Of a stretch of DNA of 64,000 nt, positions 6,121-47,746 are shown in pieces. The DNA is taken from positions 3,889 through 67,888 of the forward strand of contig CALXTW010000007.1 of assembly GCA_944391515.1 (NCBI GenBank), in the 5' to 3' direction. Position numbers and translations under genes: made by a program. The DNA comes from an uncultured Alphaproteobacteria bacterium. GTDB taxonomy: Bacteria > Pseudomonadota > Alphaproteobacteria > RF32 > CAG-239. The notes under the pieces were generated by a model. It made no database searches and was not told where the DNA came from. It was given only the letters and a program-made list of their open reading frames with translations. The stretch's first letter is position 1, and every line of letters begins with the position of its first letter.

Positions 6121-7431
6121 ATGCTCCCTCAAGAAATCATCCGCCAAAAACGCGATGGCAAAAAGCTCTCTCAATCTGAAATTTCCGAATTTATCCAAGG
6201 AGTAACTGACGGCTCGATTATGGATGCCCAAACTGCAGCTCTCACCATGGCCATATTTTTAAAAGGCATGGATGCAGAAGAAACCGCAGCTCTCACACTT
6301 GCCATGAGAGATTCGGGAGATGTTATGCAATGGCATGGGTTTGATAAACCAATTGTAGATAAGCATTCTTCAGGTGGCGTCGGCGATAAGGTCAGCCTAA
6401 TGTTAGCCCCTTTACTTGCTTGTTGTGATGTTTATGTCCCGATGATTTCCGGTCGTGGCTTGGGTCACACCGGTGGCACATTAGATAAATTTGATTCCAT
6501 TCCCGGCTACCAAACTTCTCCCTCAAATGAAAAATTTCGCCAAACCGTCAAAGAAGTAGGCTGTGCCATCATCGGCCAAACTGGCAATCTGGCACCGGCC
6601 GACAAAAAAATCTATGCCATCCGTGACGTTTGCGGTACGGTTGAATCTGTTGAACTGATAACCGCCTCGATTCTCTCCAAGAAATTAGCTGCCGGATTAG
6701 AATATCTGGTAATGGATTTGAAATGCGGCAACGGTGCTTTTATGAGTAATCTTGAAGATGCCAGAAAATTAGCCCGCTCAATCGTTTCGGTTGCCAATAC
6801 CGCCGGCACCAAAACCTCTGCACTTCTCACCGATATGAATCAAGTTTTGGGTCACACGGTCGGTAATGCCCTAGAAGTTAAAGAAGCTGTTGAATTTTTG
6901 CAAAACAAAAACCCTGACCCGAGATTAGCAGAAATCACTTTAGCACTTTGTGCCGAATTATTGGTCAATACCAAGCAGGCTCAAGACATTTCCTCCGCTC
7001 GAACCAAACTTGAAAAAGCATGGCTTTCCGGCGCCGCACTTGAAAAATTTGCTCAAATGGTTTCATCTCTCGGTGGTCCCAAAGACTTCTGCAACAAATA
7101 CGATTCTTATCTGCCGCAAGCCGCCATCATCAAACCGGTATTTGCCCAAACTACCGGCTATGTTGCTTCAATGCATACCCGTGATATTGGCCTGAGCTTA
7201 ATCAAGCTCAAAGGCGGACGCACCCGCAGTGACCAAAAGTTAGACTTTGCAACCGGCTTTAGCAATTTCTGCCAAATTGGTGATAAGGTCGAGCCAGATA
7301 CGCCTCTGGCTTATATTCATGCCCAAACCCAAGCCGAATGGGAACAAGCAGCAGAAGACATCCAACAAGCAATACGGATAGAAGCGTGCAAGCCCCACCT
7401 TACCCCCGAAATCATAGAGAAAATTTCATAA
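6121..7431 (+). CDS. deoA: thymidine phosphorylase
   Basis: 436 aa with IIRQKRDG..LS..EI..F, DKHSSGGVGDK and GRGLGHTGGTLDK motifs. Confidence 0.95.
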   Translation: MLPQEIIRQKRDGKKLSQSEISEFIQGVTDGSIMDAQTAALTMAIFLKGMDAEETAALTLAMRDSGDVMQWHGFDKPIVDKHSSGGVGDKVSLMLAPLLACCDVYVPMISGRGLGHTGGTLDKFDSIPGYQTSPSNEKFRQTVKEVGCAIIGQTGNLAPADKKIYAIRDVCGTVESVELITASILSKKLAAGLEYLVMDLKCGNGAFMSNLEDARKLARSIVSVANTAGTKTSALLTDMNQVLGHTVGNALEVKEAVEFLQNKNPDPRLAEITLALCAELLVNTKQAQDISSARTKLEKAWLSGAALEKFAQMVSSLGGPKDFCNKYDSYLPQAAIIKPVFAQTTGYVASMHTRDIGLSLIKLKGGRTRSDQKLDFATGFSNFCQIGDKVEPDTPLAYIHAQTQAEWEQAAEDIQQAIRIEACKPHLTPEIIEKIS

Positions 7432-7443
7432 TTTATCTCCCAA

Positions 7444-7469
7444 AGTCCAGCAATCGCTGGACTTTTTTT
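7444..7469 (+). terminator. rho-independent terminator after deoA
   Basis: AGTCCAGC-aatc-GCTGGACT hairpin followed by a T7 run. Confidence 0.8.
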
Positions 7470-7567
7470 AATTTTTCCCAACATCTACAATCATAGTATT
7501 TACAAACAATATTATTTATTATAAATTGCAGTTCCTTAAAACATCAACTAAAAATCGATAACCTGAA

Positions 7568-9166
7568 ATGCAAAATATTTTTCATCCTTCTTCAACCATA
7601 AAATATTGGCTCACCTTATACATTTATATTTTGTTTCCAATTTTAACTCCCCGTCTGATTGAAGGCGATAGTCATATTACCAAACGCATTATCTACAATA
7701 TGATAGCCGCATTAGGAATATGCTTTCCTTTTTCATTATTATCCCAACGTTTTCATAAAGGATTAATGTTGCTCTTTTTGTCTTTTTACCTTTTATCTTG
7801 GATAGAAATATGCCATTTACATTTATTTGACTACAAACTACTTCTTTTTTCCATTCAAATAATTTTAGATTCCAATGTCGCTGAAACAAAAGAATTTATA
7901 TATAACACGTTTGATTCCTATATTTTAAGTATAAGTGTAATCTTCTTATGTACTATTCTATTCTGCTGGTATTACACCTCAAAACTTCATATTACAACAA
8001 AGGCCAAGAATTCTTTCATTTTAATTACCTTGATAGCATTAATATTTTCTATAAATAAGGGCTTCCATTCAACGATTTTCAATCGCTATCAACTTCTTCC
8101 TTATCGATTTATAAACTCAGCTTATAATTACTATAAAGATAAATATGAATTAATAAAACTCCAAGAGGAACACAAAATTCCACATTTTACCAACCTAGAA
8201 TCTTCAAATTCACCAACAAAAAAAGAAACCTATATTGTCATAATTGGCGAATCAGCCGACCGTAACCACCTTGGTTATTACGGCTATAATCGACCAACCA
8301 CACCTTTTAGCAGCCAAGACTTACAGCCTATTGTTTTTAAAAACATTACAACACCACATACATCAACCCTTTTAGCATTAAGGGATGTACTAACCTTTAG
8401 TCACAAAGAACAGGTAAAAGAAGGGATAAGACAAGGCTCCATCATAAATATTTTCAATCAAGCAGGTTTCAAAAGTTTTTGGCTTTCCAATCAATATTCA
8501 CAAGGAAAATATGACAATTTAACCAGCGTCATTGCACACGATTCTTCCGTAACAAACTTTATAAATGATAAAGCCAATTATATTATCCGCAATAACACAG
8601 ATAGCCATTTTGATGAAGCTTTATTACCTGAATTAGATAAAGCACTTCAAGACAACGCCCTCAAAAAAATAATTTTTTTACATTTAGCCGGAAGTCACAC
8701 TCATTATGGTTTTCGCTTTCCAAAATCTTTTGATTTTTTTCAAGAATATAATAAAAATTCTTTTGAAAAAGCATTTGATGATTACGACAACAGTATTCGT
8801 TATACAGACTACGTTTTATCTCAAATTGTCAAAAGGATAAAGAAAAGACAAGAGCAAAGCTTTGTTTTATATTTTAGCGATCATGGAGATGATGTTTCTT
8901 TAGATCCTCAAAGTTGTCATTGTCACACAACAAATCCAAAAAAACAAACACCTCCAATGTATGAAATTCCATTTTTATTATGGGTTAATTCAACCTATCA
9001 AAAAAACAATCCTCAGTTAGTTAAACAAATAAAAAGCTACACCGAGCGCCGATTTATTACTCACCACCTAATTCACTCTTTGCCCACCTTAGCCGGATTG
9101 AGTTTTGATTTACAAGAAAATGATAAAAATCTCTTTTCACCTTCCTTTATCCCTGAAAAAGAGTGA
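7568..9166 (+). CDS. phosphoethanolamine-transferase-family membrane protein (sulfatase/alkaline-phosphatase superfamily, EptB/YhbX-like)
   Basis: 532 aa with a polytopic N-terminus followed by IIGESADRNHLGYYGYNRPTTP, HLAGSH..Y and YFSDHGD motifs. The gene is visibly more AT-rich than its deo neighbours. Confidence 0.8.
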   Translation: MQNIFHPSSTIKYWLTLYIYILFPILTPRLIEGDSHITKRIIYNMIAALGICFPFSLLSQRFHKGLMLLFLSFYLLSWIEICHLHLFDYKLLLFSIQIILDSNVAETKEFIYNTFDSYILSISVIFLCTILFCWYYTSKLHITTKAKNSFILITLIALIFSINKGFHSTIFNRYQLLPYRFINSAYNYYKDKYELIKLQEEHKIPHFTNLESSNSPTKKETYIVIIGESADRNHLGYYGYNRPTTPFSSQDLQPIVFKNITTPHTSTLLALRDVLTFSHKEQVKEGIRQGSIINIFNQAGFKSFWLSNQYSQGKYDNLTSVIAHDSSVTNFINDKANYIIRNNTDSHFDEALLPELDKALQDNALKKIIFLHLAGSHTHYGFRFPKSFDFFQEYNKNSFEKAFDDYDNSIRYTDYVLSQIVKRIKKRQEQSFVLYFSDHGDDVSLDPQSCHCHTTNPKKQTPPMYEIPFLLWVNSTYQKNNPQLVKQIKSYTERRFITHHLIHSLPTLAGLSFDLQENDKNLFSPSFIPEKE

Positions 9167-21655: not shown

Positions 21656-23704
21656 TTAATAAATTACGACTGGTCGTACTTTTCCTTTATTTGTTTTATT
21701 TACAGTCAGAAGAGGATAGCTGATATCTTCAACTTTAAAACTCCAGACACTAGAATCGCTATATTCCGTAGATGTCCAACGAAGACCTCTCAAATCTTCT
21801 TTCTTTAACACCTCTAATTGGCTATTTATAAAATGATGCAAATCTGCTATTAGTACAGCTTCTTTTGCACTTGGTACAAACCATTTTCCTTTTTTGCAAA
21901 AATCAGCCTCACAACCTTCCGGTTCAAAATTATTTACATATTGAGCCACCTCAGATGAGGCTTCACATTGCGCGTTTGCTCCTAACAACGCATTTGTATT
22001 TGCTCTTCCATTCTCACCGCAAGTCTCATAATTAGCAGACGAACAATTATCCATATTAGGCATATCACACTGCTTATTAAGCCATTTAAATTGATTTCCC
22101 AAAGAATAGGTTACATCATCTAGTGCGAGAGCCAAATGGTTTTCTTCATCAAAAACAACACCTATTGCTGTTTTACCTGGAATTATTGTTTTAGAAGTAG
22201 AACCATCTCCATACAAAATTGGTAATTTTTTAACTTTAATAATAGTTAGAACACCAAACTCACTTGTTTTAGAATTCGTTAATATGTCCCCTGTTGACAT
22301 ATTTAAAGCAAAAGCATCATTATTATCATATTCTGTGGAGGACCAAACGATACCTGAAAGACCTACAGAAACATAACGAGCCAAACCTGAAGCAGTTGCC
22401 AGAATTTGTTCTTTTAAAGAATAAATCTTTAACAAATCCCTAGTACTAGGCAAAAACCATTTTCCACTAGAACAAACTTCATTATAACAACCACCTCCAT
22501 AAGAGTGATGATAAGCATAATACCGATTAACTGCATCTGCGGCCACAGATGTTGTTCCACAGTGGATACTTGTATCTAACAAAGCATTTGTATTACTTCG
22601 TCCATCAATTCCGCACATTTCTAAATTATCTTTAGTGCAATTTTCCAAATTAGGCACATCACAAGGCTGTTTCAATAAACTCATTTTCGTACTTGCCGCC
22701 CCCATAGCATCATTTATATATGGTTGAGTTAACCCTATCGCTAAACTATTCTCATCATCATAAACAATTGCAACAACCCCACCATTAGTAGCACCTAGAT
22801 TTGGATGATAAGAAATTCTTCCTCTCTCATACAAAACAGGAAGAGGAACCTCTGTAGCGCAATATTTTTGAGAACATTCTTCTAAATCGCACACAGAACC
22901 AGTCGGACAGCTCGAAAGCGTACATTTATTTTCACAAGTTTTGCAGTTATTGTAATATTTAATCCCGTTCATCAGGCAACAGTCACTCGGTGTAACCGGC
23001 CCTAAGTCCGAACAAGTCATATTATAGCCACTTTTGCATTGGCATGAGGTATAATAGGTTACGCCGTTTTGCGTACAACCCGTCCCCACTCCTTGTTGAT
23101 TTTGCCCATCACAGGTTTGATTATAGTTACTCGGGCAAACACATTTGCTGTAATAAGTTACGCCCTCTTCGGTGCAGCCCGTTCCTTCCGGAATTTGTGG
23201 AGAGCTACACCCCGTGACAGGATATAAACTTCTGTCGCAATAACACATAAATTTACCGCCGCAGCTATCTCCGCTGACGGTATTAGGATATGAGCAAGCA
23301 CTCTTATCGTATTTATAACGACTATCGCAACATTTATCAAAATAAGCTGAATTATATGGACATTTTAAGCCGGGAAACAAGCCTGAACCGCAATTGGTCA
23401 GGCTGTAACCGTCTTTTTGGCATTGCTCAATCGTTGGGTCGCCAAAATCTATATTTCCGAAATCTAAATTTTTTCCACCAGTAATAAAAGAAACACTTGC
23501 GGTCTGAAAAGAATTACGATTAGGCAAGCCTAGATATAGGCTTGCCCCAGATAAAGGTTCAAAGGTTTGGTTTTGACAAGTTCTTACGAAGTGTATGTAT
23601 TTAGAGGTTACCGATTGTGACTGTTCATGAACACTATTTTTACTCACACCGCCCAATCCGGTTAGTGCAAGTACGGATAATCCTATCACAAGCTGCTTTC
23701 TCAT
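21656..23704 (-). CDS. secreted cysteine-rich protein with two C-terminal DUF1566-like (Lcl C-terminal-like) domains
   Basis: Signal peptide MRKQLVIGLSVLALTG (GAGG precedes the second ATG at 23704). The Cys-dense N-terminal half has repeats GTGCTEEGVTYYSKCVCPSNYNQTC / GTGCTQNGVTYYTSCQCKSGYNMTC. Two ~190-aa modules follow, ending GKWF(L/V)PS...W(S/T)STEY...VRPV. Confidence 0.8.
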   Translation of the reverse strand: MRKQLVIGLSVLALTGLGGVSKNSVHEQSQSVTSKYIHFVRTCQNQTFEPLSGASLYLGLPNRNSFQTASVSFITGGKNLDFGNIDFGDPTIEQCQKDGYSLTNCGSGLFPGLKCPYNSAYFDKCCDSRYKYDKSACSYPNTVSGDSCGGKFMCYCDRSLYPVTGCSSPQIPEGTGCTEEGVTYYSKCVCPSNYNQTCDGQNQQGVGTGCTQNGVTYYTSCQCKSGYNMTCSDLGPVTPSDCCLMNGIKYYNNCKTCENKCTLSSCPTGSVCDLEECSQKYCATEVPLPVLYERGRISYHPNLGATNGGVVAIVYDDENSLAIGLTQPYINDAMGAASTKMSLLKQPCDVPNLENCTKDNLEMCGIDGRSNTNALLDTSIHCGTTSVAADAVNRYYAYHHSYGGGCYNEVCSSGKWFLPSTRDLLKIYSLKEQILATASGLARYVSVGLSGIVWSSTEYDNNDAFALNMSTGDILTNSKTSEFGVLTIIKVKKLPILYGDGSTSKTIIPGKTAIGVVFDEENHLALALDDVTYSLGNQFKWLNKQCDMPNMDNCSSANYETCGENGRANTNALLGANAQCEASSEVAQYVNNFEPEGCEADFCKKGKWFVPSAKEAVLIADLHHFINSQLEVLKKEDLRGLRWTSTEYSDSSVWSFKVEDISYPLLTVNKTNKGKVRPVVIY

Positions 23705-23812
23705 AATATACCTCATTATAACTGAACCTTATCATGTTATAATTTAGCATAACATTCACTTAATGTCAAATAATTTTAAAATAAAGATTTTATTTTGGCT
23801 AAAGATATTAAA

Positions 23813-38564: not shown

Positions 38565-38864
38565 ATGGATAATAAAGACTTTGAAACCTTTGACTTTTTA
38601 ATTAACGATGAAGATGAAGTCATGCTCCTTTTGTATCAACGTGAAGGCGAACCGGAAAATCCGCATATCGAAATAGATTTTGAAGAAAAAGCTGCCTTAT
38701 TATATCGCAACGACAACGACATTATAGAGTTAAGCGATATTAGCGATGATGTGCTAGATAGCCTACAAGACGCGGATAAACTTTTAGTGTGCGAACTCTC
38801 CCGAACAGAAAATGAAGAAGAGGAAGAAATCACTCACGCCTATGAAGCAGAAATTCGCGATTAA
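38565..38864 (+). CDS. small highly acidic hypothetical protein
   Basis: 99 aa, D/E-rich, with no recognised motif. Confidence 0.55.
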   Translation: MDNKDFETFDFLINDEDEVMLLLYQREGEPENPHIEIDFEEKAALLYRNDNDIIELSDISDDVLDSLQDADKLLVCELSRTENEEEEEITHAYEAEIRD

Positions 38865-38878
38865 TATATTTACCGAAC

Positions 38879-38912
38879 AAAAAAAAGAGTTCCTTGGGGA
38901 ACTCTTTTTTTT
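38879..38912. terminator. bidirectional terminator between convergent genes
   Basis: A-run, AAGAGTTCC-ttgg-GGAACTCTT, then a T8 run. Confidence 0.8.
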
Positions 38913-38913
38913 G

Positions 38914-40230
38914 CTACTTAATCTTAAAAATTGTTTTCTTCGGTTGTGCTGCTAAAAGTCTCTGAATATAGCGCCCTTGATAAAGATTAATTCCAAGCGA
39001 ATTTCCGATATCCACCGCATTAGGATCATCCACGCGACACAAAATCATCTTTGCTCTTTCTGCTCTGTTCACATAGTCTGTAAAATGAGTATCTTCTTTT
39101 ATCATATCCATAAAAGACGGATGCCAAATAATTTTCAGCAAATCGCCATCTAATTGCTCACGATCAATATATTTCAGTTTATCAACGGTAATACCATCAA
39201 TACAAATTTTATACCCTCGATATTGCGCAAAAGTTTTAGCCAAAATAAAAGCCTTGATATCATTTAAAATATCTACCAGTTGCAATTCCAACACAATAGT
39301 GGAACGCATAGACGGATTGATATTATCATCAAAAGCCAAAAAGTCATCTGAAAGAATGGTTGATACATTCAAATTCAAACTAAAATTACTGTTTAGCGAA
39401 CCATCATCGTGTTGACCGACACTTGCCAAAACACGTTTATCCAAAGTTTCAGTAAGGTGTAAAAACAACCATGGATTTGCTGTCAAATCCACATCAGGAA
39501 GTAATGTATCTCTTAAATCGGCAATAGACACAAACACCTCATCAAAAATCATTTGCGGAGGTGATTTTCCGATAACGGCACAAACTGACTGCCTACGGAT
39601 GAGGCTGGCAAAATCGGCCATTAGCAATGCCTTTTGTACTTTAGCCAACATATTAGGCGTCAATTCTCGTCTTAACTTACGAGAGGCATTCATCGCCGGA
39701 GAAGTATTTTGAGGATTTGCTCGTCCTCCTGCGGAGGGCGAAAAATTTTGATTTTGAGAAAGACTATCCATCACATTTCTGATAACAGATTTAAACTCTC
39801 CTTTTTCTGTTGCCAAATCAAAAAATTTCACAAATCCGGCTTGTTCTAAATCAAAAGCATTTGCCAAAAAAGGATCATCGTGAAAAATAAAACGAACCTT
39901 TATAAGACAAGCCTGTATTTCTTCACTTGCTTTTTTATTAAAGAAAACAACCATATCTTCATTAGGTAGACCAAAAATTTCGCCACCATTTTTCTGCGTA
40001 ACATTTTCAAAAGTTTCTATCAGATTTTGCCTTTGCAGTGATTTAAGCTTGGCACTTTTTAATTTACTTATATACACATATAAAGCCCGAAACTGATGAC
40101 TATTAGCATCAATTTTAGAAAGATAATCTAAAATTAAAGTATCACGTTTCAAATTACTAGTTGGCTCGGAGGGTTGAGCTTTAACCTTTTCCGGCAATTT
40201 AGGTGCACTTTTACTACCAAACAAAAACAT
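38914..40230 (-). CDS. degenerate GGDEF-like / degenerate EAL-like protein (paralogue 1)
   Basis: 438 aa with AGGAGG upstream. The N-terminal half resembles a GGDEF fold with PNEDMVVFF in place of GGDEF. The C-terminal half is EAL-like (RRQSV...DEVF, NLNVS, VLELQ, ICIDG, LLKI, YQGRY) but lacks most catalytic acidic residues. Confidence 0.65.
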   Translation of the reverse strand: MFLFGSKSAPKLPEKVKAQPSEPTSNLKRDTLILDYLSKIDANSHQFRALYVYISKLKSAKLKSLQRQNLIETFENVTQKNGGEIFGLPNEDMVVFFNKKASEEIQACLIKVRFIFHDDPFLANAFDLEQAGFVKFFDLATEKGEFKSVIRNVMDSLSQNQNFSPSAGGRANPQNTSPAMNASRKLRRELTPNMLAKVQKALLMADFASLIRRQSVCAVIGKSPPQMIFDEVFVSIADLRDTLLPDVDLTANPWLFLHLTETLDKRVLASVGQHDDGSLNSNFSLNLNVSTILSDDFLAFDDNINPSMRSTIVLELQLVDILNDIKAFILAKTFAQYRGYKICIDGITVDKLKYIDREQLDGDLLKIIWHPSFMDMIKEDTHFTDYVNRAERAKMILCRVDDPNAVDIGNSLGINLYQGRYIQRLLAAQPKKTIFKIK

Positions 40231-40240
40231 GCTTCCCCTC

Positions 40241-41521
40241 CTACAACATATCTTCCAAAATCTCTGGTTGAGAGCAAGCCGCCTTCATCAAAGCAGACAA
40301 AGATTTTCTCCTCTTCAAACATTGTTGAGCTGAACACTTAGCCGCATCAGGACATTTCCCACGAATGACCGCTGTTTCAATACTATCCATAAACGGACCT
40401 TGAAAAGCCGTAATTCCATGAGAAATTCCCCACTTTAAGGCTGCTTGAGAATCACATTTTGCCAAAATAAAATTCTCTTTTCCGAGAGTATCAATAACTT
40501 CCTTATATTTCGGATTAAAGGGTTCAAATTCGAGCAAAGGTTCCCAAAAGAGCTTAACCATATCTGGTTTAAGATTTTTCAAATTAAGCATTTTCAGAGC
40601 AGCCGGTTGCACTTCATCCAACACAATTTTATGACCGCCTTGATTGAGAATTTCTTTTGCTTCAAAATACAATGGCAAATTATTAAACACATCCATCAAC
40701 TGGACTTCAACCAATACCTTTTGCTCTGGTTTCAAAAAATTTCTAGCAAAATCAATAAACTCCCGAGAAAACACCGAAGACAAATTAAGATTAAGGCTGA
40801 TTTGCTTCGGCCAATTTTTCAATGCTGCAGAAAAAAACGAGGCTAAAGTTTTTTTATCCAATGTTTGCGTCATATATAAAAACAACCAATGATTTGCCAC
40901 CAAATCCAAGTTTTTATCAAATTGCAAACTCAAATCTTTAACAGCAATAAAAAACTCTTGAAACAAGATTTCAAATTGGTTCGCACCTTTAATTTTAATA
41001 ACACTCTGACGTTTAACCAATTCCGCTATATCTATTTCATCTAATTCAGCAATAACCCCATCAATTTCATTAGCTTCAATCGGACGTTTTTGAGGCAAAA
41101 GCAAAGCTTCATTTTGCACATCGCTTTCAAACATTTCCTCAACATATTTGTAGAAAGCCACAAAATTTGCAGGGAATTCAAATACCGTTGCAAATTGACT
41201 ACAATCCTGTCCATGCAAAACAGGATCTGCAGACAAACCTTGACGCAACTTTGTAACAGCTTCATCAACGGTATCTTGAGTAATATTTTTACCCAAAATC
41301 ACAAAATCGCCGTTAGACATGATGTAGAAGTAGCCACGAGCATTACCGACCACACTGTCAAAAAGTTTACCCAGAATTTTTACAAATTCAGGATGTCTGT
41401 GTTTAGGTTTCAACTTAGAAATACTAACATAGAGTACAGCATAGCCATACGAATTTTTAGAAATTCGATCTAAGGCGTCTAATAAATATCTTTCAGCTTT
41501 ACTACTTTGTTGCCTGCTCAT
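40241..41521 (-). CDS. degenerate GGDEF-like / degenerate EAL-like protein (paralogue 2)
   Basis: Clear paralogue of the previous gene (YAVLYVSISKLK..., SNGDFVILG in place of GGDEF; KRQSV, NLNLS, LVEVQ, KIVLDE, MVKLFW, FQGPF). The ATG at 41521 is preferred. A TTG at 41578 would overlap the kinase stop. Confidence 0.65.
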   Translation of the reverse strand: MSRQQSSKAERYLLDALDRISKNSYGYAVLYVSISKLKPKHRHPEFVKILGKLFDSVVGNARGYFYIMSNGDFVILGKNITQDTVDEAVTKLRQGLSADPVLHGQDCSQFATVFEFPANFVAFYKYVEEMFESDVQNEALLLPQKRPIEANEIDGVIAELDEIDIAELVKRQSVIKIKGANQFEILFQEFFIAVKDLSLQFDKNLDLVANHWLFLYMTQTLDKKTLASFFSAALKNWPKQISLNLNLSSVFSREFIDFARNFLKPEQKVLVEVQLMDVFNNLPLYFEAKEILNQGGHKIVLDEVQPAALKMLNLKNLKPDMVKLFWEPLLEFEPFNPKYKEVIDTLGKENFILAKCDSQAALKWGISHGITAFQGPFMDSIETAVIRGKCPDAAKCSAQQCLKRRKSLSALMKAACSQPEILEDML

Positions 41522-41574
41522 TTTGTTTTTACCCCACAAACTATTTTCAGTTATAAACTCCGAATAATATTTTA

Positions 41575-42666
41575 TCAAGAGTCATACTGTTTTGCTAACA
41601 ACTGAGATATTAAATCTTTCAACTCGGCAATATTATATGGTTTTTCTAAAAACAATGCATTTGGTGGAAGTTTCACACTTGTTTTTCCACTTAAAATAAT
41701 GGCTTTCAAACGAGAATTAATCAACAATAATTCTTGATAAAGAGCATCACCATTCATATTAGGCATCATCATATCTGTAATCAACAAATCAATATCAGGA
41801 TTTTCTTTCATAATATGAAGTGCCGCATAAGGAGTTTCCGCTAAAAAACAAACCCTGTCATCTTGTTTAATCAATTCTTCCAACAACGCACGTTGCATTG
41901 CATCATCATCAACAACTAAAATTTTGGCTTTTTTCTCAAAATAATCCACCAGCGGAAAATATATTGAAAAACAACTTCCCTTCCCTTCAATACTTTCAAC
42001 CGCTAAAGAGGCTTGATATTTTTTCAAGATTTTACAAACCGAAATCAACCCTAGCCCAATCCCTTGAGTAAAAGAGCTCACAAAAGGTCTAAAGATTTTT
42101 TTGAATAACTTCGGAGCAATTCCTACACCTTTATCTTGAATCCGTAGAGCCACGCATTTGCCTTTTTTACCCTTGATAACACAGTGTGACAATTGCTGAG
42201 GCGTCACCTCTGTTTCTTTGAGAGTTACATTAATTTTTCCACCCTCAGGCATAGCTCGACAAGCATTTTGTAATAAGTTATCTAAGAGCCGCTTCAGTTC
42301 CGATTTATCACCGCAAATCAGCATCTGTTTTTCAGGCACTTCGACTTCCACTTCTATATTTTCTGTAATAATTGCTTGCCATTCATCAATTGTAGATAAC
42401 ACCATATCTCTAATACAAATGAGTGAACATTGAGTTTTTTGCGACACAAGAATATCTTTAACTTGCAGACACGCTCTCTGCAAAACACCAATGACCAAAT
42501 CATTATTATGTTTACTTTTCTGCTCTGAAACGATTAAAGAATAAAGAATTGTCAGAGTATTTTTCAAGTCATGCAATTGTACTTCAATCAATCGTTTTTT
42601 CTTTTTTAATAAAACGATAATTCCCAATTCAACCAAAACCATTCCAAGCAAAAGAATATCGAGCAT
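41575..42666 (-). CDS. membrane-anchored hybrid sensor histidine kinase with a C-terminal receiver domain
   Basis: 363 aa with one N-terminal TM, H-box LHDLKNTL, N-box LLDNLLQNACRAM, G-boxes QDKGVGI and GIGLGL, then the receiver ILVVDDD...DLLITDMMMP...K. Confidence 0.85.
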   Translation of the reverse strand: MLDILLLGMVLVELGIIVLLKKKKRLIEVQLHDLKNTLTILYSLIVSEQKSKHNNDLVIGVLQRACLQVKDILVSQKTQCSLICIRDMVLSTIDEWQAIITENIEVEVEVPEKQMLICGDKSELKRLLDNLLQNACRAMPEGGKINVTLKETEVTPQQLSHCVIKGKKGKCVALRIQDKGVGIAPKLFKKIFRPFVSSFTQGIGLGLISVCKILKKYQASLAVESIEGKGSCFSIYFPLVDYFEKKAKILVVDDDAMQRALLEELIKQDDRVCFLAETPYAALHIMKENPDIDLLITDMMMPNMNGDALYQELLLINSRLKAIILSGKTSVKLPPNALFLEKPYNIAELKDLISQLLAKQYDS

Positions 42667-42813
42667 TCTATTATCCCCTTTAATTCAGTATTAATTTTGC
42701 CACATATCAAGTTAAAGAGGTGTTAAATTGCTTTTAAGAAGACTAAAAAATAATTGCAATTTTACCATCAACAATTATAATTCTTATAGATTTTAACCAA
42801 GAGGACGCAAGAT

Positions 42814-44262
42814 ATGTTAACCCCTAAGAATAACCTTTTTCCTATCCGCAACGACATTTTAGCTCGCGTTGCCAAAAGTTTTTTCAACAATCGTTTTGCT
42901 GAAATTGATTCTGTTCCAAGTGAAGTTTTTCCAGACGGTTCACAATGCTATCATCATGATATTACCAATGACCGTAACATTGTTCGCCAAATCTGCATGG
43001 CTATTTTAGGTTTTTGTCCCGAAGATGAAGATGGTAAAAATATATCTCTTTCTGAATATGCTCAAAGAGCATTAAAACGAGAGAAATTAGAACCAAGTAA
43101 AATCTCCGTCATCAACTCCGCTTGCATGGCTTGCCGCAAAGAACGCTACATCGTAAGTGACTTGTGCCGTTCGTGCATTGCCCGTCCCTGCCAAGTAAAC
43201 TGCCCCAAAAAAGCCATCAGCTTTGTTGATGGCAAAGCATTCATCGACCAAGATGCTTGCATCAAATGCGGACGTTGCCACGATGTTTGTCCATATTCAG
43301 CCATCATCAAGAATGTTATTCCTTGTGAAGATGCTTGCCCAGTTGGAGCCATTTCTAAAGACGCTGAAGGCAAAGAACATATCGACACTGAAAAATGTAT
43401 TTCTTGCGGTAAATGCCTAAAATCTTGCCCATTCGGAGCCATTGTTGAACGCTCTCAAATGGTTGATGTTCTCAAAACCATGCTTGATACAGATAAAAAA
43501 GTCATTGCCATGGTTGCTCCGGCAATTGTCGGCCAATTTGGCGGAACAGTGAATAATTTGGTTGGAGCTCTCAAAGCTCTTGGTTTTGACGATGTCATAG
43601 AAGTTGCGGTTGGTGCCGACATCACCACCCAAAAAGAAGCCGCGGAATTCGTTGAGCGCATGGAAGAAGGTAAAAACTTTATGACCACTTCTTGCTGTCC
43701 GGCATATTTCCGTGCAGCTCAAATTCATATTCCTGAGATTAAAGATTTTGTCTCTTCAACCAAAACTCCGATGTACTACACGGCAGAACTTATCAAGAAA
43801 GAACACCCTGATTGTGCGGCTGTTTTTGTTGGTCCATGCTTTGCCAAAAGAGTTGAAGCCGAAACCGACCCCAATGTTGACTATGTTCTGACATTTGAAG
43901 AATTAAATGCTATGTTCATTGGAGCCGGAATCGATGTTGCCACCGCACCTATGGCTGAATTCAGCAAACTCTCCTGCGCCCAAGGTCGCGGCTTTCCATT
44001 AACCGGAGGAGTTGCCGGAGCCGTTGCATCTTTGGTAGAAGGCAAGACAGAAATCCGTCCTGAAAAGATTGATGGATTGAGCACAGAAAACATCAAACTC
44101 TTAAAACGTTACGCCACCAAAGGCTGCGAAAACAATATGCTTGAAGTCATGTGCTGCCCAGGCGGTTGTATTGCAGGACCTGGCTGTATCGCCATGGCAA
44201 ACAAAGCTACCATTCAAATCAAGAACTACACCGCTCAAGGTGAAGATTTGAAAAACAAATAA
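42814..44262 (+). CDS. [FeFe]-hydrogenase catalytic-subunit-like protein (monomeric type with N-terminal ferredoxin-like clusters)
   Basis: 482 aa with two CxxCxxCxxxCP motifs (CIKCGRCHDVCP, CISCGKCLKSCP) plus extra Cys. H-cluster signatures are TTSCCPAY, GPCFAKRVE and EVMCCPGGCIAGPG. Confidence 0.85.
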   Translation: MLTPKNNLFPIRNDILARVAKSFFNNRFAEIDSVPSEVFPDGSQCYHHDITNDRNIVRQICMAILGFCPEDEDGKNISLSEYAQRALKREKLEPSKISVINSACMACRKERYIVSDLCRSCIARPCQVNCPKKAISFVDGKAFIDQDACIKCGRCHDVCPYSAIIKNVIPCEDACPVGAISKDAEGKEHIDTEKCISCGKCLKSCPFGAIVERSQMVDVLKTMLDTDKKVIAMVAPAIVGQFGGTVNNLVGALKALGFDDVIEVAVGADITTQKEAAEFVERMEEGKNFMTTSCCPAYFRAAQIHIPEIKDFVSSTKTPMYYTAELIKKEHPDCAAVFVGPCFAKRVEAETDPNVDYVLTFEELNAMFIGAGIDVATAPMAEFSKLSCAQGRGFPLTGGVAGAVASLVEGKTEIRPEKIDGLSTENIKLLKRYATKGCENNMLEVMCCPGGCIAGPGCIAMANKATIQIKNYTAQGEDLKNK

Positions 44263-44307: not shown

Positions 44308-45828
44308 TTAGTCCACATTAAGAGCGTTTAACATTTCCACCACTTGAGAAGTGTAGGATTGTTTTTCTCCCCAGTTTGTAAAGCCAAAATTTTTACCTTT
44401 AGCCCAAACTTTCATCGGAGAATCTACAGATTCATATCCAGCCAACAGATGAATCAATTTGGCAATTTCCGAAGCTGTCGCCTCACACCAAAATCCATCC
44501 AAAACTTTTTCCCATTTTTTCCAAGAAATATAGTTGCAATCCTCTTCCAAGAAACTCTCCAGCACTTCCATTTGCTCATCAAAAATTTGCTCGGCATAAT
44601 CATTGAATTTCTCAAGTACCGGATAAGTTGCTATCAATTTTTTGAGTTTTAATGCAAACCACAAAGGCATTGCCTGAAAATAGCTGATATCTCCGGCCGC
44701 AAAACTTGCTGTCTTACAACAAAGCTCAAGCCATTTTTCTTCGCGTGGTGAAAAGACGCCTCGTTTCAGATAAGCATCAATATGTTCCCACTTGTCCAAT
44801 TTCAATGATTCACGGTCAATGATATGCAAACGTTCGCAAGTTTCCTCTCGCCAAGCCTCTGCAATCAGCTCTAACAAATCCAGAACTAACCTTCGATTAT
44901 CGCTGACTTTTTGTTGTACTTCAGCAAGCAAGGACAACATTTTAGCACAAGTTTCTTCGTTAGCGATTCGACTTGATAACCCCGCTATCAAATCATTTTC
45001 TCTGGCGGCATCTACAAAATCATCCAAATACGTCTCAACCAAAGCAAGTCTATCACCAATTTTGAAAGAAGGTGTATCCAAAACCTCCGACACTACTTTA
45101 CAAACTGCTGGCGACGACTTTTTCAGAGACAATATTCGCAATACTTTTTGCACCCCTTGCAAATGAAATTGTTGTTCTTCAGAGGTTAATTTCATCGGTT
45201 GTTGCCGAAAGAAGTACAGAAAATTAACATAATCAGCACAAACATCGACTGGCCTTTGCAACCGAGTCAGCCACAAATAAAGAACATCCATAGATTTCAA
45301 AGCTATCCAATACTCATCTTCGTGATACTCTTGATAAATATCCCACAGCTCTTTAACTGAAGCATCTCTCAGATTTGTTTGCTTTTTCAAAAGCTGTTCT
45401 AACACATCCAACAAAACCGGATATTGATAAGCATATTCGCTCAAAATATTCAGGAATTTGTCATTAATTGATGTATTGTGCAACAAAGACTGAACACAAG
45501 CCTTTTTACGTTCTTCATTTGCCTGTTCCTGACAATAAACTGCAGCAACAAACAAACCATACATTTTACCCGCACAATTGAGAATGTTTTTCTTAAAGCC
45601 TTCCCAACAATCATGTTTGGAATAATAAGTCAAAAACGCCTCAAACAAATGACAAGCCCATGAAGGAAACCAATCATCTACCGGAAATTTCTCTCCTTTG
45701 AGAAGGTGGTGAATCATAAAAATGAAAGCTTTTTCTTCCAATTCTTCTCTTTGAGAGTAACGGCAATTAAGCTTTTTTGCCAAACTCATCGCGTCATTAA
45801 AGACGCTTAATGCAGATTTCTTTTCCAT
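44308..45828 (-). CDS. hypothetical protein (large all-helical orphan)
   Basis: 506-aa ORF with a promoter-like TTGACA upstream and a terminator downstream. No recognised motif. Confidence 0.65.
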   Translation of the reverse strand: MEKKSALSVFNDAMSLAKKLNCRYSQREELEEKAFIFMIHHLLKGEKFPVDDWFPSWACHLFEAFLTYYSKHDCWEGFKKNILNCAGKMYGLFVAAVYCQEQANEERKKACVQSLLHNTSINDKFLNILSEYAYQYPVLLDVLEQLLKKQTNLRDASVKELWDIYQEYHEDEYWIALKSMDVLYLWLTRLQRPVDVCADYVNFLYFFRQQPMKLTSEEQQFHLQGVQKVLRILSLKKSSPAVCKVVSEVLDTPSFKIGDRLALVETYLDDFVDAARENDLIAGLSSRIANEETCAKMLSLLAEVQQKVSDNRRLVLDLLELIAEAWREETCERLHIIDRESLKLDKWEHIDAYLKRGVFSPREEKWLELCCKTASFAAGDISYFQAMPLWFALKLKKLIATYPVLEKFNDYAEQIFDEQMEVLESFLEEDCNYISWKKWEKVLDGFWCEATASEIAKLIHLLAGYESVDSPMKVWAKGKNFGFTNWGEKQSYTSQVVEMLNALNVD

Positions 45829-45934: not shown

Positions 45935-46711
45935 TTACTCAAGATGATAATCTTTTAAATTCCATCCTTTTCGCAACAGAAGTTGCTTATTGCTTTCAGA
46001 TAAATAAGGTCTTGCATCAAAAGCAAAACCTTGCGTATCAAGGCGCTGAATAACCTTTTCCCGTAAGAGATTTGCACCCAACCAAGCCTCAATCAAACCT
46101 GTTGAGCCACAGCTAATTAACTCCTGAGCTTCATCTTCATCCAAAACCATTTTATTAAGCAACAAAATGACTTCATTTACACCTAAGAGAAAAACATTTT
46201 TCTCCCAAATCATCATTCTGAAATTTCCCAACATATCCAACCAGACATCTGTCGGACAATGAATCTGCGGCGGATAAAAAGACGCCTCTAAAGACAAATT
46301 AAGCTGCATTACAGACTTTCTTAAAAACAACATTGAAGTCTGTAATTTGATAGAGGTATGTTCAACCAAAAAAATAAAATCTTTCTTCTCTAACCCCAAA
46401 CCCTTGACCTTCTCATCAATCAACTTTTCAAGCTTGAGCTTTTTGACTTTTTTCTCAGAAAGTTTTAACACATCTCTAACTTGGGAAGCATAATCATAAT
46501 AAAGCAAATAGCGCTTAACTGTTTTTGCATTCCCGCAATCGAGTAACTTTCTCCATAAGTCATCGGGTAACCATCTCACTCTAAAGACTTGCCTAAGCTT
46601 AAAGAATTGACGTTTTTCAATCAGGTCGGCACACATTTGTGTACTGATTTGGCGCTTGTATAGACACCTCCAAAAGCATACTTCTTGCTTCAAATTTTCT
46701 AATAATTTCAT
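45935..46711 (-). CDS. hypothetical protein
   Basis: 258-aa ORF. Its stop is immediately followed by the terminator GGCGGAAC-tttg-GTTCCGCC plus a T run (minus strand). Confidence 0.6.
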   Translation of the reverse strand: MKLLENLKQEVCFWRCLYKRQISTQMCADLIEKRQFFKLRQVFRVRWLPDDLWRKLLDCGNAKTVKRYLLYYDYASQVRDVLKLSEKKVKKLKLEKLIDEKVKGLGLEKKDFIFLVEHTSIKLQTSMLFLRKSVMQLNLSLEASFYPPQIHCPTDVWLDMLGNFRMMIWEKNVFLLGVNEVILLLNKMVLDEDEAQELISCGSTGLIEAWLGANLLREKVIQRLDTQGFAFDARPYLSESNKQLLLRKGWNLKDYHLE

Positions 46712-46867
46712 CTTCCAAAAAATTTAAATTACACAATAAGAATTAATCACTCACAAAATAAAGTCTTTTATGTATCATGTCAAACATTTTCTCTATTTTG
46801 TCTATTGATTCTCTCAAAATATTATGTTACAAAAACTGCAATAACTTTATTTTTAATTTTATATATT

Positions 46868-47746
46868 ATGAAACGAAAAAACCTTACGGTCACTGTCACT
46901 CATGTAGGACACCCGTACCCAGAATTCCAAGGAGGTAAAACACCTCAAATTTCCATTGCTGTTTTAGCAGAAAACAATTATTTCTGTTTTCCGGCCTCTC
47001 CCCTAAGCATGCTTATCCAAAAGGGAGATACAATAACCGTCACCCCTGCGGGAGAGCTCAAAAAGGTCAATAATTTAGAGATTAACGCGCTCGTTAACCT
47101 TTCAGAATTCGACGGAACAATAGACAGAGTATCCCACCCTTTGTGGTTAAAAAATCCACATACAAACTTTAACAGCTTATATGTGGTCATCATGACACAA
47201 GGAAACATTTTTCCGGTAAAAGCCAATTGGAATACCTTGCTTCTCAGAAGTGGCGACAATATTACATTGGAGCTCGACAACTATGAAATCCTCAAATTCA
47301 AAAACAAAACTCTAAAATTTGAGTTCAATGCCACCTCCAAACAAGCAATATCACTAAAAGGAAAAATCAAACGCGCAACATTTCCCTTAATGTGGCCCAA
47401 CCACCAAGGAATCATGGGATTAAAATCATTAGTGTTAATGGAAGACCTAAAATTCAAAATTCTTCCTGCAACACCGGAATCAATGTTTTTGGAAGATGGC
47501 GACAGGGTAGAAATTAGTGATAAGAGTATAAAGAATGCACGCATTCCGCAAATTCGTTTTCTTGACAGTGCCTTGCCGGAATATTACGAGGTAAAATACA
47601 TCGGACATCCATTTCCGACCTTGTTTTCCAATGGGCAAAAATCTCTGGGGCGTTTTCTTATAACCCCAAACAATGAGCTCTATCTCGTTCCAGCAACTGA
47701 GACAAATATGCTCACCCAACCGGGAGACAAGATTATTAATTTTTAA
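46868..47746 (+). CDS. hypothetical protein made of four tandem ~75-aa repeats
   Basis: Start taken at the ATG at 46868 (MKRKNLTV...). The repeats begin VTHVGHPYPEF..., IDRVSHPLWLK..., IKRATFPLMWP... and VKYIGHPFPTL..., and each ends in a (P)GD.I motif. Confidence 0.65.
   Translation: MKRKNLTVTVTHVGHPYPEFQGGKTPQISIAVLAENNYFCFPASPLSMLIQKGDTITVTPAGELKKVNNLEINALVNLSEFDGTIDRVSHPLWLKNPHTNFNSLYVVIMTQGNIFPVKANWNTLLLRSGDNITLELDNYEILKFKNKTLKFEFNATSKQAISLKGKIKRATFPLMWPNHQGIMGLKSLVLMEDLKFKILPATPESMFLEDGDRVEISDKSIKNARIPQIRFLDSALPEYYEVKYIGHPFPTLFSNGQKSLGRFLITPNNELYLVPATETNMLTQPGDKIINF

Follow-up and report, generated by a model that had tools for sequence, protein, structure and literature searches.

What do two adjacent genes encode when both resemble proteins of cyclic-dinucleotide signalling and neither keeps the motifs by which such proteins are recognised? 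The question is raised by a three-gene operon in a 64,000-nucleotide stretch of contig CALXTW010000007.1 (assembly GCA_944391515.1) from an uncultured Alphaproteobacteria bacterium; the whole of this stretch is called the window below. The operon comprises three co-directional open reading frames (ORFs) on the minus strand, encoding a hybrid histidine kinase (HK), an upstream paralogue (p2) and a downstream paralogue (p3), in that order (table 1). A first-pass annotation read them as a minimal kinase followed by two catalytically degenerate GGDEF-EAL-like proteins, probably receptors of the LapD/FimX type. We find that the conserved unit is the tandem p2–p3 pair, not the trio. We tentatively propose that the pair is a two-subunit, non-hydrolysing receptor for c-di-GMP (cyclic diguanosine monophosphate) or a related nucleotide, whose closest analogue appears to be TipF of Caulobacter crescentus.

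Are p2 and p3 GGDEF-EAL proteins at all? That they are paralogues, as first supposed, is clear: they are 27% identical over about 400 residues (E = 2e-44). Searches with the two Pfam models, proposed at the outset as a check, gave half an answer. The EAL model (PF00563) scores 25.6 bits with p2 and 24.1 bits with p3, both under its gathering cut-off of 31.3 bits, and the GGDEF model (PF00990) matches neither of them, nor any of 106 family members at E ≤ 0.1. Since 98 of 106 members match Pfam EAL at the same threshold (best E 2.4e-13), although p2 and p3 themselves remain sub-threshold, the EAL homology is genuine, though divergent. No EAL or GGDEF structure came up when the PDB was searched by sequence with p2, p3 or the family profile, and the sole NCBIfam match was a very weak one to CsrD (E 0.007–0.05).

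To these we can add predicted structures. The AlphaFold2 models have a predicted local distance difference test score (pLDDT) of 85 for p3 and 92 for p2, and were submitted to Foldseek as full-length queries. For both paralogues the top matches are GGDEF-EAL tandem modules (E 3e-11 to 1e-9, about 420–445 aligned columns), among them those of Vibrio cholerae and Pseudomonas fluorescens LapD, PA0861, MorA, PA0575 and DosP. The best match of p3 is the LapD GGDEF-EAL module 6pwk (E 2.8e-11, about 440 aligned columns); the top matches of p2, again GGDEF-EAL modules, reach 5e-11. EAL-only structures (YahA, FimX, MorA, PA3825, RbdA and YkuI) follow at E 1e-8 to 1e-5, with TM-scores normalised to the target (TMt) of 0.55–0.63, the full-length alignments to GGDEF-EAL modules being about 1000-fold better. 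In the N-terminal half, the topology of the model fits the GGDEF/palm fold (β-α-β-β-α-β), with the signature on the β2–β3 hairpin.

Profile–profile alignment (hhalign) of a 506-sequence family alignment with the GGDEF and EAL proteins of Escherichia coli K-12 gives the same answer. Against six E. coli GGDEF domains the N-terminal domain scores 28.2 (P = 3e-4) with the motif in the correct register; the controls score 8.6–14.7 (20 column-shuffled alignments), 10.0 (reversed) and 12.3 (against EAL). Against four E. coli EAL domains the C-terminal domain scores 37.3 (P = 8.5e-5), and shuffled alignments 11–16. This run replaces one with a 3-sequence EAL alignment and a shallow query, which returned a probability of 0.2% and misaligned the N-terminal part. 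Because Foldseek and the controlled hhalign comparison agree, an architecture of GGDEF-like plus EAL-like domains is supported for both proteins, on models and profiles, much as the first-pass annotation had read it from the motif pattern.

What has become of the cyclase site? The GG(D/E)EF motif is not kept. In its place p2 has SNGDF and p3 PNEDM, and the supposition that these replace GGDEF proved right: hhalign puts both exactly in the GGDEF register. Across the family the signature takes the form (S/P)-N-x-D-(F/M). Its Asn and Asp, as in SNGDF of p2, are 94–99% conserved; among proteins of the p3 type Asn90 is conserved in 85% and Asp92 in 99%. The metal-binding Asp pair of β1 is lost, DxD having become x-x-Ser in the alignment to the E. 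coli GGDEF domains, and no RxxD I-site lies five residues upstream of the signature. With the cyclase site gone, no cyclase activity is expected of these domains.

The EAL-like domain tells a different story. Its pocket residues, given here in p3 numbering, were mapped onto E. coli PdeL, PdeH, PdeR and DosP, and their conservation was counted over 506 full-length family members. The Gln of the QP motif is Gln214; E-A-L-x-R reads Glu231-Val-Phe-Val-Ser235; E-L-T-E reads Glu315-Leu-Gln-Leu; D-D reads Asp345-Gly346; the catalytic Lys is Lys366; E-G-V-E reads Cys398-Arg399-Val400-Asp401; and Q-G is Gln418-Gly419. The metal-binding Asn is Asn286 or Asn288, for hmmsearch and hhalign differ by two residues at this point, and both are 97–100% conserved. 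So, in both paralogue types, are Gln214, Glu231, Glu315, Asp345, Lys366, Gln418 and Gly419, while Asp363 is conserved in 96–98%. Both p2 and p3 thus keep the catalytic Lys as well as the ligands of the first metal (the Glu of EAL, the Asn, the Glu of ExxE and the first Asp). This overturns the earlier claim that most metal-binding acidic positions are substituted.

The remainder of the catalytic apparatus is missing. The Arg of ExLxR is replaced by Ser or Ala throughout the family (position 235), the second Asp of DD by Gly and others (Gly346 in p3), and the catalytic-base Glu of EGVE by Cys, Ala or Ser (position 398). Loop 6 is lost, and with it any DFGTGYS motif. The former EGVE motif instead holds a fixed basic residue (Arg in 91%, or Lys/Arg in 98%) and an Asp (76–87%), together with a conserved Cys (AKCD in p2, CRVD in p3). 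The description of the proteins as doubly degenerate therefore holds for the cyclase site and for the EAL base Glu, but not for the EAL pocket as a whole. That pocket is, on its residues, half degenerate: one metal site, the catalytic Lys and the base-stacking Gln-Gly are kept. Counted against the list of Tchigvintsev, the family keeps about six of the ten classic essential EAL residues. The EAL domain of FimX keeps four of the ten (PMC3527489). A published rule holds that an EAL domain whose EGVE base Glu is missing is an inactive phosphodiesterase (PMC12900916), and because that Glu is missing here, no phosphodiesterase activity is predicted for p2 or p3.

If the pocket does not hydrolyse, might it still bind? 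The C. crescentus protein TipF offers a precedent. Its EAL motif reads ESF and its Asp-Asp reads Asp-Lys; it binds c-di-GMP with a KD of 0.4 μM, for which E211, D331 and K352 are needed; it showed no hydrolysis after 24 h; and it tolerates the substitutions R215L and E396A (PMC3792480). Our comparison rests on these published residue descriptions, and on that footing the correspondence is close. TipF is likewise alphaproteobacterial and has E-x-F for EAL (ESF, where the family has EVF or EFF), and in both DD has lost its second Asp, to Lys in TipF and to Gly in the family. What TipF requires (the EAL Glu, the first Asp, the Lys) is what is invariant in the family; what it can dispense with (the Arg of ExLxR and the base Glu) is what the family has lost. 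There are also differences. TipF itself, unlike the family, retains Arg215 and Glu396. It has two transmembrane (TM) segments and a coiled coil where the family has its GGDEF-like domain, and it is encoded by a single gene and lacks a Cys tail, whereas the family forms a tandem pair with a Cys tail on p2.

LapD and FimX, the models first suggested, resemble the pair less. LapD shares with the family a degenerate GGDEF domain, a degenerate EAL domain and the role of a non-catalytic receptor. Yet its TM segment, periplasmic domain, HAMP domain and S-helix have no counterpart in p2 or p3, which lack any hydrophobic segment or extra domain and have only some 25 residues ahead of the GGDEF-like domain. 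LapD has lost metal ligands that the p2/p3 family keeps. It binds c-di-GMP through the Arg of ExLxR, absent here, and acts on the protease LapG; Pfam scans of the larger ORFs found no LapG-type partner in the window. In FimX (of Pseudomonas aeruginosa and Xanthomonas), too, the GGDEF and EAL domains are degenerate and c-di-GMP is bound but not appreciably hydrolysed, and its EAL domain (4foj) is among the best EAL-only structural matches (TMt 0.63). FimX has, however, REC and PAS domains and a PilZ partner, whereas p2 and p3 have neither domain and the window holds no PilZ motif; it keeps the Arg of ExLxR, there in an EVL..R motif and used to bind c-di-GMP, where the family has Ser or Ala but retains more of the other essential residues. 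A probable non-catalytic role thus survives from the LapD/FimX assignment, its architectural side does not, and TipF appears on residue pattern to be the closer analogue. The canonical GGDEF-EAL enzymes (PA0861/RbdA, MorA, PA0575, DosP and E. coli PdeR) share domain order and folds with p2 and p3, but in them the GGDEF and/or EAL signatures are intact; they also possess loop 6 and sensor domains at the N terminus, and are easily recognised by Pfam.

How widespread is the pair, and is it kept together? A profile search of 1.84 billion representatives found 1,724 clusters (50% identity) at E ≤ 1e-3, with 700 reaching E ≤ 1e-30. With few exceptions the members are 400–465 amino acids long and share one full-length architecture. 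Since the profile does not reach canonical EAL proteins in that search, the family is a distinct, divergent clade. The closest loci lie in metagenome-assembled genomes (MAGs) named uncultured Alphaproteobacteria, Candidatus Scatocola or 'uncultured Azospirillum'; 80 such gut loci were compared. Named members occur in Magnetospirillum gryphiswaldense, Paramagnetospirillum, Phaeospirillum, Terasakiella, Minwuia, Stellaceae and many Rhodospirillales MAGs, annotated as 'hypothetical protein' or 'EAL domain-containing protein' and mostly without a precomputed Pfam match. The p2 type, with its tail of four Cys (Cys4), and the p3 type, with a basic tail, are about equally common (234 and 272 of 506). 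Upstream sequence is available for 79 gut loci, and in every one of them p2 directly precedes p3, stop and start codons often overlapping. The same order recurs in M. gryphiswaldense, where the pair lies within 448018-465346 of CP027527.1, in Terasakiella, on a 2.17-Mb JGI scaffold and in a further metagenomic lineage; at a marine Rhodospirillaceae locus two members stand in tandem, both without the Cys tail.

The ratio of nonsynonymous to synonymous substitution rates (dN/dS), computed against the closest loci, is 0.016–0.064 for p2 and 0.063–0.084 for p3; that of the neighbouring hydrogenase gene is 0.025–0.048. Both paralogues are under very strong constraint, at the level of a core metabolic enzyme. 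We conclude that the tandem pair, spread through Rhodospirillales-like Alphaproteobacteria, is the conserved unit. Degenerate GGDEF-EAL receptors are already known as a kind. What is new here is an uncharacterised, widespread and constrained family of stand-alone, obligate-looking tandem paralogues, largely invisible to Pfam.

The p2 type carries one further mark. All four Cys of its tail are invariant in 20 distant p2-type sequences, the spacing across the family being C-x5-7-C-x4-C-x12-14-C, and the tail is modelled confidently (pLDDT 91–97 over the last four 10-residue blocks). It matched no known motif. From its sequence it may be a zinc or an iron–sulfur (Fe-S)/redox site.

What role might be played by the kinase? 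In the window it is much as first described, with one TM segment, almost no sensor, a complete core and a fused receiver, and both of its Pfam domains and its phospho-acceptor are readily placed (table 1). The Pfam HisKA model does not match it; the receiver shows the DD...D...K pattern. With His32 only about 10 residues past the single TM segment there is no sensor domain, and from that segment onward the protein aligns with residues 287–686 of a 686-residue orthologue, in which a TM segment, a periplasmic SBP_bac_3 domain and a second TM segment precede the shared part. A kinase stands upstream of p2 in 45 of the 80 gut loci, at lengths from 305 to 728 residues. In 19 loci it has 668–728 residues, with the SBP_bac_3 sensor between two TM segments; in 17 it has 394–454, mostly with one TM segment; in five it is of the near-sensorless window type (359–380); in four it has 305–327, and three of these lack the H box. 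In about 35 loci it is absent and the hydrogenase gene abuts p2 directly. The series is an unusually clear snapshot of the stepwise loss of a sensor kinase. The dN/dS of the kinase (0.18–0.23) indicates purifying selection, yet is about ten times that of p2. Outside the gut lineage, no kinase precedes the pair in Magnetospirillum, in Terasakiella or at the marine Rhodospirillaceae loci, and the single-gene loci of Minwuia and a Stellaceae MAG adjoin unrelated kinase/regulator pairs. Of the trio, then, the pair is the conserved part; the window kinase is the sensor-less remnant of an accessory, lineage-specific and decaying partner.

How might such a pair work? We lean, with somewhat less than even confidence, to the receptor proposed above. 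Each subunit would consist of a GGDEF-like domain without a cyclase site, fused to an EAL-like domain whose TipF-like pocket binds c-di-GMP or a closely related nucleotide together with one divalent cation, and does not hydrolyse it. The signal would be passed on by a change of conformation or of partners. Produced together in fixed gene order, p2 and p3 probably form a hetero-oligomer by way of their EAL-like domains; a regulatory or interaction role would fall to the GGDEF-like domains, and the Cys4 tail of p2 would contribute a metal or redox element. The membrane-anchored kinase, co-transcribed here, would be an optional, lineage-specific input or partner that has lost the periplasmic sensor kept in its relatives.

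Several observations weigh against this receptor. The Arg of ExLxR, which contacts c-di-GMP in LapD and FimX, is absent, as is the Glu of the 'AE..G' helix (Asn in the family). The structural matches are moderate, with a TMt of 0.55–0.63 and a root-mean-square deviation of about 5 Å for the EAL part. Three lineages have a single p3-type gene, and because such lineages carry that gene alone, a heterodimer is not obligatory. A motif scan, Pfam scans of the larger ORFs and Rfam revealed no cyclase, PilZ protein or riboswitch in the window. Finally, receptors of the purely binding, FimX-like sort have lost their metal ligands, and the near-perfect retention of the metal site here could mean residual or altered catalysis. 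The two proteins would then be active hydrolases, an unconventional EAL subclass cleaving c-di-GMP or another phosphodiester, in which Glu-Asn-Glu-Asp would hold one metal, and Lys366, Arg/Lys399 and Asp401 would assist, the latter two replacing EGVE. Such an enzyme would account for first-metal ligands and a catalytic Lys conserved at about 100% in both paralogues over 506 sequences, for the basic residue and the Asp fixed in the former EGVE motif, and for constraint at the level of a metabolic enzyme (dN/dS 0.02–0.08). The number of metals in EAL domains is moreover debated, the YkuI and FimX structures showing one (PMC3527489). On the other hand, the base Glu, the second Asp, the DFGTGYS of loop 6 and the Arg of ExLxR are all missing; the rule cited above classes such domains as inactive (PMC12900916); and TipF, with a comparable pattern, did not hydrolyse c-di-GMP in a day-long assay (PMC3792480). 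We regard hydrolysis as unlikely. It is just as unlikely that p2 and p3 are ligand-independent scaffolds or adaptors in the manner of YdiV, BluF and CsrD, engaged in protein–protein or protein–RNA contacts only. Their conserved polar residues would then serve fold stability, but near-invariance falls on metal- and phosphate-contacting residues in paralogues only 27% identical, and fold stability alone is for that reason hard-pressed to explain the pocket. YdiV and CsrD, EAL-like proteins blind to the ligand, have lost these pocket residues. What speaks for a scaffold is the very weak match to CsrD, the loss of the ExLxR Arg and of the substrate-binding Glu, and the lack of c-di-GMP genes elsewhere in the 64 kb.

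Could the trio nevertheless be a dedicated two-component pathway, with the kinase as a core part whose receiver docks on or controls p2 and p3? This would be compatible with the receptor, and would amount to the FimX-like arrangement of REC, degenerate GGDEF and degenerate EAL split over separate polypeptides. The genes are co-directional, separated by gaps of 50 and 10 nucleotides and closed by one terminator; no other response regulator or Hpt was found in the window by Pfam scans of the larger ORFs; the kinase occupies the same position in more than half of the gut loci; and kinase/regulator pairs adjoin the single members in Minwuia and the Stellaceae MAG. But the pair persists where the kinase is absent, both in the gut and in Magnetospirillum, Terasakiella and the marine Rhodospirillaceae. 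The sensor varies or has been lost, the H box is missing from some copies, and the tenfold higher dN/dS points the same way, so that we consider a dedicated pathway doubtful. More speculative still, and as a whole most improbable, is an ancient two-subunit device in which a Cys4 metal or Fe-S centre couples redox, iron or H2 status to the single-metal pocket. That pocket would bind some nucleotide besides canonical c-di-GMP, or hydrolyse it by a new mechanism with Arg/Lys replacing the second metal, and in gut lineages the device would control the divergent [FeFe] hydrogenase.

Why should the p2–p3 pair matter? Censuses of c-di-GMP signalling rest on Pfam matches to GGDEF, EAL and PilZ, and would miss this family of about 1,700 clusters, whose members, mostly labelled 'hypothetical protein', occur in cultured Magnetospirillum as well as abundant gut Alphaproteobacteria. 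Because its pocket retains exactly the residues that TipF requires for c-di-GMP binding, this widespread orphan family can be given a hypothesis that is concrete and testable. Its paired subunits, the invariant Cys4 tail and the stepwise loss of the kinase sensor make the pair a tractable case of the evolution of pseudo-enzymes and of their inputs. Because the pair is present in the genetically tractable M. gryphiswaldense, experiments are feasible.

Table 1. Features of the HK–p2–p3 locus and its surroundings (window coordinates; residue numbers refer to the respective protein).
Feature	Coordinates	Strand	Description
Bidirectional intrinsic terminator	38876-38915	-	hairpin with flanking A-run and U-run; closes operon and convergent 99-residue ORF
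p3, downstream paralogue	38914-40230	-	438 residues; basic C-terminal tail, no Cys motif
p3 EAL-like domain	38941-39663	-	residues 190-430
p3 GGDEF-like domain	39751-40149	-	residues 28-160
p3 PNEDM	39952-39966	-	residues 89-93; GGDEF position (hhalign register)
p2, upstream paralogue	40241-41524	-	427 residues from ATG; GGDEF-like (about 25-142), EAL-like (about 150-376), Cys4 tail
p2 Cys4 tail	40274-40354	-	Cys391-x5-Cys397-x4-Cys402-x14-Cys417, C-terminal; four invariant Cys; putative metal or Fe-S/redox site
p2 SNGDF	41303-41317	-	residues 70-74; β2–β3 hairpin, GGDEF position (model secondary structure, hhalign register)
HK	41575-42666	-	hybrid histidine kinase, 363 residues
HK receiver	41614-41922	-	residues 249-351; Pfam Response_reg, 56.2 bits
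HK HATPase_c	41950-42312	-	residues 119-239; Pfam 69.1 bits, model positions 1-109 of 111
HK His32	42571-42573	-	phospho-acceptor in HDLKN, from sequence
HK TM segment	42604-42666	-	residues 1-21; one N-terminal hydrophobic segment
Divergent intergenic region	42667-42813		147 bp between HK operon (-) and hydrogenase gene (+); presumed promoter region of both
[FeFe]-hydrogenase-like gene	42814-44262	+	Fe_hyd_lg_C (208 bits) and Fer4 domains; divergent from kinase operon

The layout of the operon agrees with the first reading in its three genes, in the lengths of the two paralogues and in the 10-nucleotide gap between p2 and p3; the gap between HK and p2, given there as 53 nucleotides, is 50 by coordinates. 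A Shine–Dalgarno-like purine run precedes all three starts. An alternative TTG start at 41578 would extend p2 to 445 residues, and its orthologues, of 425–428 residues, match the ATG start. Since promoter-like matches in the divergent intergenic region (42694-42665 on the minus strand, 42754-42781 on the plus strand) are no commoner than in shuffled sequence, a promoter is placed there from position only. The terminator hairpin folds at -22.3 kcal/mol (z -7.27; none of 200 shuffles was equally stable); a simple terminator scan missed it because its U-run pairs with its A-run. The convergent ORF that shares it (38565-38864, plus strand) encodes a very acidic protein of 99 residues with no Pfam or PADLOC match, and adjoins the pair in a syntenic position in about 30 of the 80 gut loci. 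The AT-richness pointed out at the start is real but modest, the guanine-plus-cytosine content being 35.2% in the operon and 39.9% in the window; among segments of equal size the operon ranks in the lowest 2%. It is no sign of foreign origin, because synteny is conserved across 80 related genomes, and horizontal transfer was rejected as its cause.

What surrounds the pair? Neither the motif scan nor the Pfam scans of the larger ORFs turned up another GGDEF, EAL, HD-GYP or PilZ gene in the window, in agreement with the first remark that no active cyclase, phosphodiesterase or output gene is present; Rfam gave no match to riboswitches or other RNAs, and PADLOC none to a defence system. The remainder of the window consists of housekeeping genes and a ribosomal-protein cluster. 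The hydrogenase-like protein has two ferredoxin-type clusters and, by eye, the motifs TSCCP, PCxxK and MCCPGGC. Its gene lies divergently upstream of (HK)-p2-p3 in 77 of the 80 gut loci, with or without a kinase, and several loci contain two copies; in Magnetospirillum and other Rhodospirillales it does not adjoin the pair. Its proximity could reflect inherited synteny or a regulatory link to the Cys4-bearing p2, and we treat it as conserved context, not as an established part of the system. A Metallophos phosphoesterase gene and hldE, which encodes ADP-heptose synthase, recur divergently ahead of the pair in Magnetospirillum, Terasakiella and a marine Rhodospirillaceae MAG, at 7118-7879 in locus L088, 4424-5209 in L091 and 5115-5786 in L094 and neighbours. 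The gene hldE also follows the single family member in the Stellaceae MAG.

Between the hydrogenase gene and rplQ sit three ORFs without a Pfam family, at 44308-45828 (minus strand, 506 residues), 45935-46711 (minus, 258) and 46805-47746 (plus, 313). All three are found in the related loci L004–L007 and L009, and only that of 258 residues in L008; they look like lineage-specific genes. Elsewhere in the window, at 21656-23716 on the minus strand, a protein of 686 residues has as its only Pfam match a weak one to Lcl_C (Legionella collagen-like C-terminal), and may be a surface or adhesin-like protein of this gut commensal.

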